From sequence record KY703222: 64,000 nt of DNA, one strand, 5' to 3'. This document shows positions 3,773-57,395 of this stretch, piece by piece; within the stretch, counting starts at the first letter, position 1, and each line of letters begins with the position of its first letter. A program made the translations under genes and the position numbers. Under the pieces are notes generated by a model that was not told the DNA's origin, searched no databases, and saw only the letters and a program-made list of their open reading frames with translations. Source of the stretch: Escherichia phage phiC120.

Positions 3773-5743
3773 ATGGCAAACACTCCTGTAAATTATCAGT
3801 TAGTCAGAACGGCGAATGCTATTCCCGAAATTTTTATCGGGGGCACATTTGCCGAAATTAAAACAAATATAATCGAATGGCTCAATGGACAGAACGAATT
3901 TCTTGATTATGATTTTGAAGGTTCGCGTTTAAACGTATTGTGTGACCTTTTAGCATATAATACTCTTTATATCCAACAGTTCAGTAATAGTGCAGTGTAT
4001 GAAAGCTTTATGCGTACTGCTAACTTGCGCAGTTCCGTTGTACAAGCGGCTCAGGATAATGGATATCTGCCTGCATCTAAATCGGCAGCACAAACAGAAA
4101 TTATGCTCACATGTACGGATGCATTAAATAGAAACTATATCACTATTCCGCGTGGTACTCGTTTCCTGGCGTATGCTAAAGGTACTTCTGTTAACCCGTA
4201 TAACTTTGTTTCCACCGAAGACGTCATTGTAGTTAAAGACAAAAATAATCAATATTTCCCACGTCTTAGGTTAGCTCAGGGACGTATTGTTCGTACTGAA
4301 TTAACATTTGATAAATTAAAACCTATCATTATTCGTGATAAGAACATTGACCGTAATTTGGTTAAATTGTATGTTGACGGAGCAGAATGGATTAACTGGA
4401 CTCGCAAATCGATGGTTCATGCTGGTTCTACTTCAACCATTTATTATATGCGAGAAACTGTTGACGGGAACACTGAATTTTATTTTGGTGAAGGTGAAAT
4501 CTCTATTAACACATCAGAAGGTGCTTTAACATCTAACTACATTGGCGGCCTTAAACCTGTCCAGGGTTCTAAAATCGTAATTGAATATATTTCTACTAAT
4601 GGTGCTGAAGCAAATGGTGCAGTAGGATTCTCTTATGCTGATACATTAGCTAATATCACAGTTATTGGAATTAATGAAAACCCAAGTAATAACCCTGACT
4701 TCGTTGGTGCTGATGGCGGTGGCGACCCTGAAGATATTGAACGTATCCGTGAATTAGGTACAATTAAACGCGAAACTCAACAACGATGTGTGACTGCGAC
4801 CGATTACGACACATTCGTCTCTGAACGATTTGGTTCTATTATTCAAGCGGTTCAGACATTTACGGATTCATCTAAGCCTGGGTACGCATTTATTGCTGCT
4901 AAACCTAAGTCTGGGCTATATTTGACTTCCGTCCAACGAGACGATATTAAAAATTATCTTAATGAGTATAACTTAGGGACGATAACTCCTGTTGTTATTT
5001 CTCCTGATTATTTGTTTATTAAAATGAATATTCGCGTTACGTATGCATTGAACAAATTACAGGAATCTGAACAATGGTTAGAAGGCCAAATTATTAATAA
5101 AATCGACCGGTATTATATTGAAGACGTGGAAATTTTTAACTCGTCATTCGCAAAATCTAAAATGCTAACGTATGTAGATGACGCAGATATTTCTATCATT
5201 GGTTCGTCTGCGACTATTCAAATGGTTCGCGAGGTACAGAACTTCTACAAAACACCTGAAACAGGTATTAAATACAATAACCAGATTAAAGATAGAACAT
5301 TAGAATCTAACGTGTTTTCATTTGATAGTTTACGCGTTGACCCTGAAACGGAAGCTACTATTAAATACGACGTTCGCATTGTAGGTTCAGATAGAAATGA
5401 CCGTGGCATTGGACAAGTTATTATTGGCCCGTTTGCAGATGGCGACGTTATAGAAAATGCTTATATTCAACCATATACTGGTGACGATTTTAATAAACTT
5501 CATGTTACGGACGGAAGAAACAAATATTACTCTATAGGTGAAGTAAATTATCCGGCTGATTCAATTTATTGGAATATAGCTAAAATTGATTTAACTTCTG
5601 ATAGGTTTGAAGTTCAAACTATTGAACTCTATTCAGACCCAGCTGATGATGTTATCTTTACTAAAGACGGGTCATTAATTGTATTTGAAAATGACTTACG
5701 TCCGCAATATTTAACCATAGATTTGGAGCCTATTTCACAATGA
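3773..5743 (+). CDS. 6: baseplate wedge subunit gp6
   Basis: Start MANTPVNYQL matches recalled T4 gp6; about 656 aa. Confidence 0.93.
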   Translation: MANTPVNYQLVRTANAIPEIFIGGTFAEIKTNIIEWLNGQNEFLDYDFEGSRLNVLCDLLAYNTLYIQQFSNSAVYESFMRTANLRSSVVQAAQDNGYLPASKSAAQTEIMLTCTDALNRNYITIPRGTRFLAYAKGTSVNPYNFVSTEDVIVVKDKNNQYFPRLRLAQGRIVRTELTFDKLKPIIIRDKNIDRNLVKLYVDGAEWINWTRKSMVHAGSTSTIYYMRETVDGNTEFYFGEGEISINTSEGALTSNYIGGLKPVQGSKIVIEYISTNGAEANGAVGFSYADTLANITVIGINENPSNNPDFVGADGGGDPEDIERIRELGTIKRETQQRCVTATDYDTFVSERFGSIIQAVQTFTDSSKPGYAFIAAKPKSGLYLTSVQRDDIKNYLNEYNLGTITPVVISPDYLFIKMNIRVTYALNKLQESEQWLEGQIINKIDRYYIEDVEIFNSSFAKSKMLTYVDDADISIIGSSATIQMVREVQNFYKTPETGIKYNNQIKDRTLESNVFSFDSLRVDPETEATIKYDVRIVGSDRNDRGIGQVIIGPFADGDVIENAYIQPYTGDDFNKLHVTDGRNKYYSIGEVNYPADSIYWNIAKIDLTSDRFEVQTIELYSDPADDVIFTKDGSLIVFENDLRPQYLTIDLEPISQ

Positions 5744-52578: not shown

Positions 52579-52827
52579 TTACTTCAGGGTAATAACAAAA
52601 TGACGAACTGCTTTACGAGCTGCTGAAGCCAGAGGCTTAGCATATTTCAATTCATCTTTCTGAGCCAGTACATCACGAAGATCGGCCTGTGCTGGATTCA
52701 GATGTTTGAAATACTGTAAGATTTCCAGTGCTTCGGCTTCAACATCAATTGACGCACCGTAGTTTTCGTGACCATTATTCCATGCATGGCGTTGCAGTTC
52801 AAGAGCGTGTTGTAATTGTTTAATCAT
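52579..52827 (-). CDS. rIII: rIII lysis inhibition accessory protein
   Basis: 82 aa; N-terminus MIKQLQHALELQR matches recalled T4 RIII. Confidence 0.85.
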   Translation of the reverse strand: MIKQLQHALELQRHAWNNGHENYGASIDVEAEALEILQYFKHLNPAQADLRDVLAQKDELKYAKPLASAARKAVRHFVITLK

Positions 52828-52943
52828 TTTAAATTCTCAATTCGAGATAATATTTAGTAGCCACGTTCGTCTGAATTTCACCTTCTTTCGACAAGTCTCT
52901 CAGTTGTAGGCTACCGCTTAGAAGAGTGTTCTCTTCATATAGT

Positions 52944-52951
52944 TATTTATA
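52944..52951 (-). promoter_or_regulatory. late promoter TATAAATA (minus strand) upstream of rIII
   Basis: Plus-strand TATTTATA immediately downstream of gene 31 stop. Confidence 0.5.
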
Positions 52952-53284
52952 TCACTTATAAAGACACGGAATAGCTTTATAGTGGCATGTTACGAATTTC
53001 TGTTTAATTTCTTTAGGTTGTTTAAGACCTAAAGCCACAAATGGATGTGGAACATTTCGAATTTGTCCAACTGGTAGTGGAGTCAAATCACCGGCTTCAA
53101 CAAAACCTTCAGGAACATCAGGACCTACAGAATGAACTACACATAGTTCAGGAACTTCACCTTGAACACGTTTACCAATCACAAGTCCTGATTCGGTAAC
53201 TTCTTCATCACCTGCTTGAGCGGGTTCAGAAACCAGAATGACATATTCACCAACAGCACGAATTGGGAGTTGTACTTCAGACAT
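52952..53284 (-). CDS. 31: head assembly co-chaperonin gp31 (GroES-like)
   Basis: 110 aa; near-identical to recalled T4 gp31. Confidence 0.92.
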
Positions 53285-53314
53285 CTTATTTCCTTGTTGT
53301 TTGACGATAGATTA

Positions 53315-53339
53315 ATAATACCATACTATTCGTAAAGCA
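53315..53339 (-). promoter_or_regulatory. candidate MotA-dependent middle promoter for gene 31
   Basis: Minus-strand ATGCTTTAC (MotA box), 12 nt, TATTAT. Confidence 0.45.
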
Positions 53340-53341
53340 TA

Positions 53342-53650
53342 TTACATAAGAAGCAAACGTTCGACCGGAGTACCATCAACCGAAATTACTTTATCAAGGC
53401 GGAAAGAACGCCACTGACCTAACTCGGTATCGAATGCTCGAACTGATTCACGAGGTTCAGAACGAACTTCTGTTGATGGGTTACTATTTTCATATTTGAC
53501 TTCAAGTTCATCGCGCGAAGCAAACATAGTGCGTACATCACCGTTAGCCTTTTCAAATACAACACAATGAACGCCTACAGACAGAATAGTTTTAATACGT
53601 TCACGAAGAACCATAGTTTCTTGTTCAGTTAAAATCATATTATTCACCAC
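53342..53650 (-). CDS. hypothetical protein (T4 31.1-like)
   Basis: 102 aa ORF between cd and gene 31. Confidence 0.6.
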   Translation of the reverse strand: MVNNMILTEQETMVLRERIKTILSVGVHCVVFEKANGDVRTMFASRDELEVKYENSNPSTEVRSEPRESVRAFDTELGQWRSFRLDKVISVDGTPVERLLLM

Positions 53651-54221
53651 AAAAGTTTCGGATTTGTTCCCAATTCAGAGAACGAAGATTATTACGAGAG
53701 TACTGAATTACTTCAATACCAGCTTGTTTTAGAATATCTGCCCAATTTTCAGGAGATCGGTCGTATAATTCTGCGTATACGACCTTTTTAATACCTGACT
53801 GCGTAATAGCTTTAGTACAATCAGGACATGGAGAAAGCGTCGTATATAACGTAGCACCTTCAATAGAATTACCTTTACGAGCTGCAAACAAAATTGCATT
53901 CAATTCTGCATGGATTTCATTATTAGCAGACCATGCACTATGAGCAGCTCGATGTTCTTTGGCTAAAACAAAATTATCTACTCGTCCAAATGCTGTAGTG
54001 CCTTCTTTATGTCCAGCAACGATGACTGGGATTGGTTTATTCTTCAACCAACCATTTTCAGATGCATGTTCGCAACAGTTAACGCCACCTGCAGGTGAAC
54101 CGTTATATCCAGTAGAGATAATGCGTCCATCTTTTTCAATGACGGCACCAACTTTCCATGAACAACATTTTGATTCTTGAGAAATCAGATATGCAATCTG
54201 AAGGTATGTGCTAGCTTTCAT
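53640..54221 (-). CDS. cd: dCMP deaminase Cd
   Basis: 193 aa; cytidine/dCMP deaminase zinc motifs HAE and PCPDC. Confidence 0.93.
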   Translation of the reverse strand: MKASTYLQIAYLISQESKCCSWKVGAVIEKDGRIISTGYNGSPAGGVNCCEHASENGWLKNKPIPVIVAGHKEGTTAFGRVDNFVLAKEHRAAHSAWSANNEIHAELNAILFAARKGNSIEGATLYTTLSPCPDCTKAITQSGIKKVVYAELYDRSPENWADILKQAGIEVIQYSRNNLRSLNWEQIRNFCGE

Positions 54222-55213
54222 TATTGAACCTTATTAATATAAGTTAACAGCTCTTTAGTTTGTTCCCAACTGATGCACGCATCGGTAACGGAAACGCCAT
54301 AGGACATATTATCAGAAATTTTTTGATTTCCTTCATGTAGGAACGATTCTATCATAATTCCTTTGACCAAATCATTAGCTGCTAAATTTTTACCAATACC
54401 AATTTGATTGCTATAATGCCCATCAGCGTTTGCATGGCTACAGTCAACCATTACATAATGATTCAGACCTACTGCCCTTGCTTTGTTAGAAGCTTCTTGA
54501 ATATCAGAAGAATGATAGTTCGGGCCGTTGGTCCCGCCACGCAATACGATATGCGTATTCTGATTACCTTCAGCTTCAACAATGCCTACAGTACCATCGA
54601 CGTCCATACCCATATACCGATGAGGCCAGGCGGCACTATACATCGCGTCTGTAGCTACTTTAATAGAACCATTGGTTGCGTTCTTGAAGCCTACGCACAT
54701 CGGTAGACCTGAAGCAATTTCACGATGTGTCTGACTTTCAGTCGTACGGGCGCCAATAGCAACCCATGAGAAAATACCAGAAAGATACTTAATCGTGAAT
54801 GGGTCTAATACTTCAGTTGCTAATGGAAGTCCCATACGTAGAAGTTTACGACACAATGTTCGTGCAACTATAAGACCGTGGTTCATATCAAAACTTCCGT
54901 CAAGATATGGATCATTTACAAGACCTTTCCAACCTACGGTAGTTCGAGGCTTTTCAAAATAAACGCGCATCACTAACAGAACATTAGGAAGACGAGTTTG
55001 AAGTTCAGCCAGACGTTTGCCGTATTCAACAGCAGCAATAGGGTCATGAATTGAACAAGGACCTACAACAATAAGTTTGCGTGGGTCTTCACCGTTCATA
55101 ATCGAATTAACTTGTTCGCGATGAGAAGCCACTTGTGATGCGTAAGCTTCCGACAAAGGAATAATCTCAGCCAGTTCTTTTGGAGAAATAAGTTTTCCGA
55201 CGACAGGTAACAT
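54221..55213 (-). CDS. 3-deoxy-D-arabino-heptulosonate 7-phosphate (DAHP) synthase, class I AroG-like
   Basis: 330 aa; AroG/F/H hallmarks GPCSIHDP, MRVYFEKPRTTVGWKGL, GARTTESQTHRE, VGFKN, ILRGG, SHAN, ESFLHEGNQ, TDACISW; AAGGA SD. Confidence 0.88.
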   Translation of the reverse strand: MLPVVGKLISPKELAEIIPLSEAYASQVASHREQVNSIMNGEDPRKLIVVGPCSIHDPIAAVEYGKRLAELQTRLPNVLLVMRVYFEKPRTTVGWKGLVNDPYLDGSFDMNHGLIVARTLCRKLLRMGLPLATEVLDPFTIKYLSGIFSWVAIGARTTESQTHREIASGLPMCVGFKNATNGSIKVATDAMYSAAWPHRYMGMDVDGTVGIVEAEGNQNTHIVLRGGTNGPNYHSSDIQEASNKARAVGLNHYVMVDCSHANADGHYSNQIGIGKNLAANDLVKGIMIESFLHEGNQKISDNMSYGVSVTDACISWEQTKELLTYINKVQ

Positions 55214-55333
55214 AACAATCCTTAGGAGATATAAACAGATTCTGATTCAACAATACCTTTAACCGGATTAGACAGGCTAAGTTGGTAGTGCTCAGATTTA
55301 TGACCATTCTCAATAGTAATGAGATAGCTCTCA

Positions 55334-55570
55334 TTATAGTGTTCCATATACTCGAGTTGCTTCAACAAGACCATCACTGCCTAATTTAAGGCTAGTAATC
55401 TGGTCACCATCTTTAGGATTAACGATTATGAGAAAAGAACGTGGAGATTCTTGAATAACTCGTAATGTTGCATCCTGGAAACGTTCAGACACTTTATTGA
55501 TGAGTGCTTGAGCAAATTCTTTTACTTTAATCTGAAATTCGTGTACTGTAATTGGGGTTTCACTTAGCAT
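55334..55570 (-). CDS. hypothetical early protein (78 aa)
   Basis: ORF with GAGGAA SD directly behind an early promoter; first gene of the operon containing DAHP synthase and cd. Confidence 0.55.
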   Translation of the reverse strand: MLSETPITVHEFQIKVKEFAQALINKVSERFQDATLRVIQESPRSFLIIVNPKDGDQITSLKLGSDGLVEATRVYGTL

Positions 55571-55599
55571 TTCGATTTCCTCATTGTGTTGGTAGAGTT

Positions 55600-55629
55600 A
55601 TAGTATCACAACTCCACCATGTTGTAAAC
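55600..55629 (-). promoter_or_regulatory. early promoter GTTTACA-N17-TACTAT
   Basis: Minus-strand GTTTACA, 17 nt with TGTGA, TACTAT, 30 nt upstream of the 78-aa ORF. Confidence 0.55.
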
Positions 55630-55905
55630 TTAAATTGCAAAACATTTAATTTCTTGTGAATCGAAATCAACTTCACACTGAATTACTAGTTCGGCATCAA
55701 GACCAAACACAACAATCGCATGAGCCGAGCTGGGCAGCAATGTAACAGACACAGAATCCACTTGGTCAGGCACCAGAGTATTCAAAACGTAGAGTAGTTC
55801 AGAGTGGACCTTAAGCTCAGTAGCAGTATCCAGCTTATCAAAGAAATGATTTGCGATAATCTGGCTAAAAACTACCTTTACAATTTCAGAATATTTAGGG
55901 AACAT
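55630..55905 (-). CDS. hypothetical protein (91 aa)
   Basis: ORF in the cd-pseT small-gene cluster. Confidence 0.5.
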   Translation of the reverse strand: MFPKYSEIVKVVFSQIIANHFFDKLDTATELKVHSELLYVLNTLVPDQVDSVSVTLLPSSAHAIVVFGLDAELVIQCEVDFDSQEIKCFAI

Positions 55906-55912
55906 AATTACC

Positions 55913-56137
55913 TCAGTGCACAGTATTTACTTTAACTCGAACAACAAATTGCTCGGTCGGTTCACCTACAGGAACAAACTCTACATGATATTCGCCTTTG
56001 TAACGAGTATTCAGGTCGTTACGAATTTCGGTAAGCTTGTTGATTAATGTAGAACTCATATTAAGTCCTACTAGTTTACGAAGCATTTTGTATGCTTCAT
56101 CTTCGATTTCATGATGTTTATCGTACATAATTTTCAT
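55913..56137 (-). CDS. hypothetical protein (74 aa)
   Basis: ORF in the cd-pseT small-gene cluster. Confidence 0.5.
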   Translation of the reverse strand: MKIMYDKHHEIEDEAYKMLRKLVGLNMSSTLINKLTEIRNDLNTRYKGEYHVEFVPVGEPTEQFVVRVKVNTVH

Positions 56138-56308
56138 TTAACCATTCAATTGCCTGGTCGACGTTATCAAATATACCACCGTCCAAACGTTCTTCATGCT
56201 CATAGTCCAGCACATCAATACCGAACTGTCCATTTACTAAAGGCCAGGCTACAAACAAATATTCTTTATGCTGTTCGATGGCCTCAATCACTTCATATAA
56301 TCGTTTCA

Positions 56309-56309
<1 letters not shown>
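56118..56309 (-). CDS. hypothetical protein (63 aa)
   Basis: ORF immediately downstream of pseT with a 1-nt overlap. Confidence 0.5.

Positions 56310-57395
<1,086 letters not shown>

Follow-up and report, generated by a model that had tools for sequence, protein, structure and literature searches.

What does a T4-like coliphage gain from its own copy of the enzyme that admits carbon to aromatic biosynthesis, and is that copy regulated like those of its host? The question is raised by a gene of Escherichia phage phiC120 (sequence record KY703222), located on the minus strand at positions 54221-55213 of the 64,000-nucleotide stretch that was analysed (the window). [quoted passage not shown] The gene itself is already known, being a widespread and annotated accessory gene of T4-like enterobacterial phages, and as such it is ordinary; only the regulatory interpretation exceeds the existing annotation. 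The catalytic residues are all retained, while the site to which feedback inhibitors bind in the Escherichia coli enzymes is remodelled and the N-terminal segment is short, so that the phage enzyme may be a natural feedback-resistant variant. The value of the finding lies in the fact that this hypothesis is concrete and cheaply testable.

Gene identity and catalytic residues

Membership of the open reading frame (ORF) in the class I-alpha DAHP synthases is far beyond chance. It matches Pfam PF00793 (DAHP_synth_1) with E=5e-75 and 252 bits (cut-off 25.5), the NCBIfam aroFGH equivalog TIGR00034 with 427.7 bits (cut-off 173.2) and PRK12755 with 455 bits (cut-off 343), and its top match in the Protein Data Bank (PDB) is E. 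coli AroF (6agm, E=5e-105). The initial annotation had recognised a DAHP synthase of class I, an identity which profiles, alignment and catalytic residues fully support, and the metal-binding Cys, His, Glu and Asp residues are intact. Of the eight motifs that it quoted, GPCSIHDP, EKPRTTVGWKGL, GARTTESQTHRE, VGFKN and SHAN are exact, while each of the others shows a single conservative exchange, with VLRGG for ILRGG, ESFLHEGNQ for E..LVEGNQ and VTDACISW for ITDACI.W. Its term “AroG-like” is imprecise: the phage protein is slightly nearer to AroF (51% identity) than to AroG (47%) or AroH (44%), it remains below the cut-offs of the AroG-specific profile NF006723 (363 vs 568) and the AroH-specific profile NF009396 (386 vs 463), and it belongs to a phage-only clade of its own. 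At the position associated with Phe/Tyr specificity (AroG-S211/AroF-G212) it has a Gly.

The gene starts with an ATG, and a Shine-Dalgarno sequence AAGGA, read from the sequence, is located 5 nt upstream of it (55219-55223, minus strand). A longer N-terminus can be excluded, as there is an in-frame stop 11 codons upstream and no ATG, GTG or TTG in between.

The window protein was aligned with 98 sequences from bacteria and 24 further representatives of the phage clade (123 in total), and all 11 catalytic, PEP (phosphoenolpyruvate) and E4P (erythrose-4-phosphate) residues proved invariant throughout. These comprise the metal ligands C53, H260, E289 and D311 (AroG Cys61, His268, Glu302 and Asp326; 123/123) and the PEP/E4P residues R83, K88, R90, T91, R156, K177 and R225 (AroG R92, K97, R99, T100, R165, K186 and R234), which include the KPRT motif. 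An AlphaFold2 (AF2) model of the protein, with a predicted local distance difference test (pLDDT) score of 91.5, shows the (beta/alpha)8 barrel with the beta6a/beta6b insertion, the hairpin being formed by strands 198-203 and 209-214. Foldseek aligns this model to 4hso, 1gg1 and 1kfl (NmeDAH7PS and E. coli AroG) with a template-modelling (TM) score of 0.95 and a root-mean-square deviation (rmsd) of 1.5 A. The ratio of nonsynonymous to synonymous substitution rates (dN/dS) is 0.14-0.23 in between-genera comparisons, values that represent an upper bound since dS is saturated. The family and fold matches, the invariant catalytic residues and the low dN/dS all point to a constrained enzyme that is almost certainly active, converting PEP and E4P to DAHP and inorganic phosphate.

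Inhibitor site and N-terminus

DAHP synthase governs the entry of carbon into the shikimate pathway, chiefly via feedback inhibition (PMC9529685). An unbiased scan for alignment columns which are fixed in the phage proteins and fixed in the bacterial proteins, but with different residues, returned just six of 330 columns. In AroG numbering, the replacements are P150 to I, Q151 to K, D155 to G, S180 to P, F209 to Y and T223 to A, corresponding to I141, K142, G146, P171, Y200 and A214 of the phage protein. All six are in or adjoining the inhibitor site. Four belong (P=3.8e-6) to the nine residues published for this site, namely AroG 147, 151, 155, 179, 180, 209, 211, 212 and 214 (PMC9529685), and five fall on a combined list of site residues and feedback-resistant mutants (P=3.7e-7).

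The published data on these positions are informative. In AroG, Q151 and S180 touch the main chain of the inhibitor and D155 forms a salt bridge that stabilises the site; the P150L variant is fully Phe-resistant, and S180F, F209A/S and V221A are also resistant variants (PMC9529685). The residue of yeast Aro4 that aligns with phage K142 is Q166, and ARO4-Q166K is a standard feedback-resistant yeast allele (PMC7513737); the Q-to-K exchange in the phage enzyme (AroG Q151K) is the identical change. The phage replacements thus resemble those in AroG P150L, S180F and F209A/S and in yeast ARO4-Q166K in affecting the same positions, but, unlike engineered or selected alleles, they are natural, they are combined (six positions and an N-terminal deletion), and they are fixed clade-wide. 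The strategy which we propose for the phage would be the same trick that metabolic engineers apply with aroG-fbr (feedback-resistant) and ARO4-Q166K alleles.

The remodelled signature is characteristic of this group of phages. It was present in all of 10 T4-like loci from IMG/VR, whereas P-Q-x-S-F is retained at 80/80 bacterial genome loci. Among the 98 bacterial database homologues, Q151 is kept without exception and P, S and F in nearly all, and the signature is absent from nearly all homologues in giant-virus metagenome-assembled genomes (GVMAGs).

The second difference concerns the N-terminus. Met1 of the phage protein aligns with AroG residue 9, so the protein has 8-9 N-terminal residues fewer than AroF and AroG and does not include the motif (T/L)(N/E/D/Q)(N/D)(L/V/I), which occupies AroG positions 5-8. 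This motif is kept in 98/98 bacterial sequences and absent from the phage clade. Ahead of the column of AroG-P18 there are only 7-11 residues in 25/25 phage-clade representatives, compared with 15-52 in bacteria. There are also two short deletions near the C-terminal helices relative to AroF and AroG. In summary, the phage enzyme shares with Tyr-sensitive AroF (6AGM/6AGL) and Phe-sensitive AroG (1KFL/1QR7) the family, the fold, the metal ligands, the KPRT motif, the PEP-binding Arg and Lys residues and the hairpin, and it differs from them in the short N-terminus without the motif and in having I/K/G/P/Y/A at the six AroG positions. From the remodelled inhibitor site and the missing N-terminal regulatory segment we predict that it is insensitive to feedback by Phe, Tyr and Trp, and we consider this probable. 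The initial annotation had suggested that a phage copy could bypass the feedback inhibition of the host, an idea that gains residue-level support from the inhibitor-site substitutions.

Proposed role and competing explanations

We favour a role in which the DAHP synthase, expressed early and insensitive to feedback, drives carbon into the shikimate pathway, and judge it somewhat more plausible than the alternatives taken together. A conserved promoter of the early type would direct transcription of the gene together with its neighbours cd.2 and cd. The product would be catalytically normal but, unlike AroG, AroF and AroH, would have a remodelled allosteric inhibitor site and no N-terminal regulatory segment. 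Transcription of host genes is shut off by T4-type phages, and the closely related phage OLB35 has an annotated alc homologue nearby; the infected host would be unable to re-induce its own DAHPS enzymes, which are repressed and feedback-inhibited. Under such conditions the phage enzyme could keep carbon entering the pathway regardless of pool sizes, to the benefit of aromatic amino acids and chorismate-derived cofactors. As to whether a sustained supply of chorismate and aromatic compounds is the physiological purpose, we see the chances as even. Cyanophages carry the transaldolase gene talC, an auxiliary metabolic gene which reroutes central carbon; the concept of a viral copy of a flux-controlling host enzyme acting in infection is common to both cases, while the pathway and the host group differ.

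Several points weigh against this proposal. The literature searched contained no functional study of a phage DAHPS but only annotation-level mentions, for phiC120 and for Klebsiella phage KLB31. The variants assayed in AroG at these positions carried exchanges other than P150I, S180P and F209Y, F209Y is conservative, and Q-to-K was assayed in yeast Aro4 only. Far from decaying, the remodelled residues show a strict conservation that a merely dead pocket would not require. The N-terminal deletion may be, less certainly, a further deregulating change: in the complex of AroG with Phe, the inhibitor is presumably capped by Asp6 and Asp7 from the adjacent subunit, and N-terminal mutations in AroF abolish inhibition by Tyr. 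The gene is also dispensable, being absent from T4, RB69, JK42 and others. Finally, no other shikimate gene was found in the regions of the phage examined, so that any benefit would depend on downstream enzymes of the host.

One alternative is an ordinary extra isoenzyme, a Tyr-sensitive DAHPS of the AroF type which supplies more enzyme copies and is still feedback-regulated. AroF is indeed the nearest E. coli paralogue, the specificity position has the Gly of AroF, the beta6a/beta6b hairpin is kept, and many GenBank records state “aroF, Tyr-sensitive”. However, these labels were carried over by similarity, and the AroF residues P151, Q152, D156, S181 and F210 are all replaced, in addition to the absence of the N-terminal motif; we regard this explanation as unlikely. 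Conservation of the replaced residues could instead signify re-tuned allostery, with the pocket formed by I141, K142, G146, P171, Y200 and A214 binding another effector (e.g. a phage-relevant metabolite) or a protein partner. The six positions are at least 96% conserved within the phage clade although synonymous sites there are saturated, and 8 of 14 pocket positions are invariant as compared to 34% of all columns. This enrichment is not significant, however (Fisher P=0.057), the conservation could be purely structural, such as a lock in the active state, and no candidate ligand is known; we regard such a re-tuning as improbable.

The genomic context invites a different thought, that the enzyme acts as a metabolic sink for E4P and/or PEP, for example by pulling the non-oxidative pentose-phosphate pathway towards ribose-5-phosphate for nucleotides. 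The gene is embedded in a nucleotide-metabolism block (cd downstream and pseT upstream, with td, frd and rnlA close by in L014, a T4-like metagenomic contig), and an unrelated large virus (contig L110) has its own DAHPS gene beside one for thymidylate kinase. On the other hand, the interval between cd and pseT is a hotspot of insertion in general, so that the position may be accidental, and a sink overlaps with the role that we propose in a way which sequence cannot separate; we give it a slim chance. An altered chemistry, in which PEP is condensed with another sugar phosphate, as by 3-deoxy-D-manno-octulosonate 8-phosphate (KDO8P) synthase or to yield some novel compound, in the service of a sugar or DNA modification specific to the phage, is very improbable. 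It could be considered because PF00793 includes KDO8P synthases and because the phiC120 paper loosely ties the domain to lipopolysaccharide (LPS) synthesis, but a KDO8P-synthase-like or other reaction was ruled out by scores above the aroFGH equivalog cut-off and by the invariance of the KPRT motif and of all E4P/PEP ligands. A link to DNA sugar modification of the RB69 type was also ruled out, as RB69 itself does not have the gene, which is hence not needed there. That the gene is a non-functional passenger, or is decaying, we find hardly credible: its dispensability in several relatives would allow for this, but the low dN/dS, the full-length ORF in 211 records, the invariance of every catalytic residue and the preserved Shine-Dalgarno sequence and translational coupling are contrary to it.

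If feedback insensitivity is real, this would be the first coliphage enzyme characterised as an override of the step at which aromatic biosynthesis is controlled, and retention of the gene in most Mosigvirus genomes would be accounted for. The enzyme would also be a naturally optimised feedback-resistant scaffold (six substitutions and an N-terminal deletion) for the engineering of aromatic compounds.

Locus, distribution and origin

The immediate 3' neighbour of the DAHPS gene is cd, which codes for dCMP deaminase (53640-54221, minus strand, like all features described here). The stop codon TAA of the former overlaps the ATG of the latter (TAATG at 54219-54223), which implies that translation of the two genes is probably coupled. 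On the other side, a spacer of 120 nt (55214-55333), found in Mosigvirus copies only, separates DAHPS from cd.2 (55334-55570; 78 aa, DUF7320/phrog_1504). The latter is the first gene past a promoter-like element of the T4 early type, GTTTAC-17-TACTAT (55600-55628), which can also be written TTTACA-17-TACTAT with GTTTAC at -35. A generic promoter scan was not above chance (9 sites vs 11.9 expected from shuffled sequences), and the element is called a promoter because T4, RB69 and JK42 have it conserved in the corresponding location; early expression is predicted on this basis. The promoter and terminator scan revealed neither a promoter nor a terminator within the 120-nt spacer. The variable interval ends upstream at pseT (polynucleotide kinase/phosphatase; 56309-57208). 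This arrangement bears out the initial annotation, which had placed the gene directly upstream of dCMP deaminase on the minus strand, behind a 78-aa ORF and an early promoter, and had described only small ORFs for T4. The T4 cd-pseT interval does contain just five, of 65-112 aa, including cd.1. Elsewhere (WFbE185, VR7 and Providencia phage PSTRCR_121), putative homing or intron endonucleases occupy the interval, which is therefore a hyperplastic region and a general hotspot of insertion.

The novelty that the initial annotation had implied fails by the standard that it set itself, carriage of the gene at this locus by close T4 relatives. Escherichia phage OLB35 (Mosigvirus) is the closest relative of the window, with a nucleotide identity of 97.9% across 4.8 kb. 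By tblastn, the protein was found in 211 phage records with a full-length ORF, 138 of these with an identity of 95% or more and at least 36 with one of 100%. About 138 RB69-like (Mosigvirus) genomes have the at least 95% identical protein at the same cd.2/cd site. A query that spanned the cd.2/cd junction without the insertion found the empty site intact in 11 records, including RB69, JK42, mar005P1 and moha, and the junction split by an insertion in about 137. Homologues with 55-77% identity reside within the pseT-cd interval of Kanagawavirus CIP9, Kagamiyamavirus EcS1, Bragavirus phiP4-3 and contig L014. A basal member, P0022 (L012), has T4-like neighbours on its contig, with no cd called. 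Phages of Klebsiella, Serratia, Erwinia, Edwardsiella and Providencia also have homologues.

The family had been named before. The window protein is a member, without any difference, of the group represented by PHROG 5045 (phrog_5045, E=3.2e-182; category “moron, auxiliary metabolic gene and host takeover”) and by the GenBank aldolase of Straboviridae (Mosigvirus, Kanagawavirus, Kagamiyamavirus, Bragavirus and others). GenBank labels for the same, often identical, protein are inconsistent: phospho-2-dehydro-3-deoxyheptonate aldolase, putative aldolase, aroF, “aroF Tyr-sensitive”, AroG, DAHP synthase, “DHAP synthase class 1” (a typographical error) and hypothetical protein are all in use, and the isoenzyme-specific labels among these are not backed by the NCBIfam cut-offs. 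In the literature, a domain match was reported for phiC120 and loosely linked to LPS synthesis (phiC120 paper), and the DAHPS of KLB31 was hypothesised, speculatively, to be an auxiliary metabolic gene for amino acids (PMC11845039). No account of the divergence of the phage clade, of the missing N-terminal motif or of the fixed inhibitor-site changes was found in the literature searched.

Homologues outside the T4-like phages were also encountered. Aeromonas phage HJ05 (79 kb, not T4-like; L011, 4899-6062) encodes a DAHPS homologue of 387 aa which is 38% identical and in which every catalytic residue is kept. Its regulatory positions (AroG P150, Q151, D155, S180 and F209) are occupied by A-H-P-P-V, with S180P shared with the T4-like clade, and may represent convergent deregulation. 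A large virus seen in two IMG/VR contigs (L110, 262 kb, positions 3956-5005, and L111, 27 kb) encodes a DAHPS that is 49% identical, with a full-length N-terminus and with P-N-H-P-Y at these regulatory positions. Next to it are genes for a topoisomerase IB of eukaryotic type, for a NUDIX protein and for the thymidylate kinase mentioned above. HJ05, L110 and the T4-like clade grouped together in 38 of 60 bootstraps, which could be due to long-branch attraction, and their altered sites may stem from shared ancestry or from convergence. A speculative generalisation, doubtful at present, would be that T4-like phages have long kept a naturally deregulated or re-tuned DAHPS (I-K-G-P-Y-A and the N-terminal deletion, acting as a permanent “on” lock or as a site for a new effector), and that the overlapping changes in HJ05 and L110, including S180P, reflect a recurrent viral strategy at the entry point of aromatic biosynthesis.

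Dozens of GVMAG contigs from IMG/VR (L114-L177) contain class I-alpha DAHPS homologues with 40-48% identity and the canonical P-Q-D-S-F; about a dozen of these ORFs have 630-680 aa, suggesting fusions, and the contigs are possibly viral or possibly cellular contamination. Matches assigned to “Acinetobacter phage MD-2021a” (L017, CAKLQH020000056.1) were rejected as phage acquisitions, as aroF is located there beside cobS, cobT and a ribazole phosphatase gene on what look like bacterial chromosome contigs.

Concerning the origin of the gene, the initial annotation had proposed phylogeny as a means to identify the donor lineage, but no bacterial donor can be named. In neighbour-joining (NJ) trees the phage proteins form a monophyletic, phage-only, T4-like clade (100/100 bootstraps) on a long stem, with a weakly defined sister group of gammaproteobacteria-like sequences from metagenome-assembled genomes. 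A search of 5.8 billion proteins and a scan of 185,579 species-representative genomes revealed no cellular enzyme with more than 52-55% identity. Because of this ceiling, and because the best matches are spread over many phyla, acquisition by T4-like phages appears to be old. The GC content of the gene (0.43-0.44 in 54250-54999) exceeds that of its immediate flanks (0.37-0.39), which would agree with a foreign origin or with constraints on the amino acids.

Its presence in Mosigvirus looks like a secondary event. RB69 and JK42 are devoid of a 1113-bp segment which in the window has on either side an imperfect direct repeat of 15 nt, ATAATGA[G/A]AGCTA[T/G]C, corresponding to the translation-start region of cd. 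The left junction, ATAATGAGAGCTATC (55323-55337), is an imperfect repeat of that region, and the right junction is ATAATGAAAGCTAGC (54210-54224). The repeat could be the recombination footprint of gain or loss, although part of its left copy is also within a relic of a cd.2 gene, so that a chance similarity is possible. This relic is a 41-aa ORF in the spacer (55347-55222; phrog_15876), annotated in some records as 50 aa from an upstream GTG. It corresponds to the C-terminal half of a foreign cd.2, being 51% identical to the cd.2-like protein of Kanagawavirus CIP9, where the cd.2-like gene precedes DAHPS, as compared with just 26% for the resident cd.2. In two relatives, OLB35 (L001) and LF82-7 (L015), DAHPS and spacer match those of the window at 99.2-99.8%, with flanking genes at 88-100%. 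Because of the repeat-bounded segment, the foreign cd.2 relic and this high identity next to more variable flanks, the DAHPS cassette looks to have been imported secondarily into Mosigvirus from another T4-like phage. Across 52579-57208, divergence from these two relatives is mosaic: cd is 99.1% identical to that of OLB35 and 93.3% to that of LF82-7, pseT is at about 97%, and rIII, with only 88-90%, is an apparent hotspot of diversification among very close relatives.

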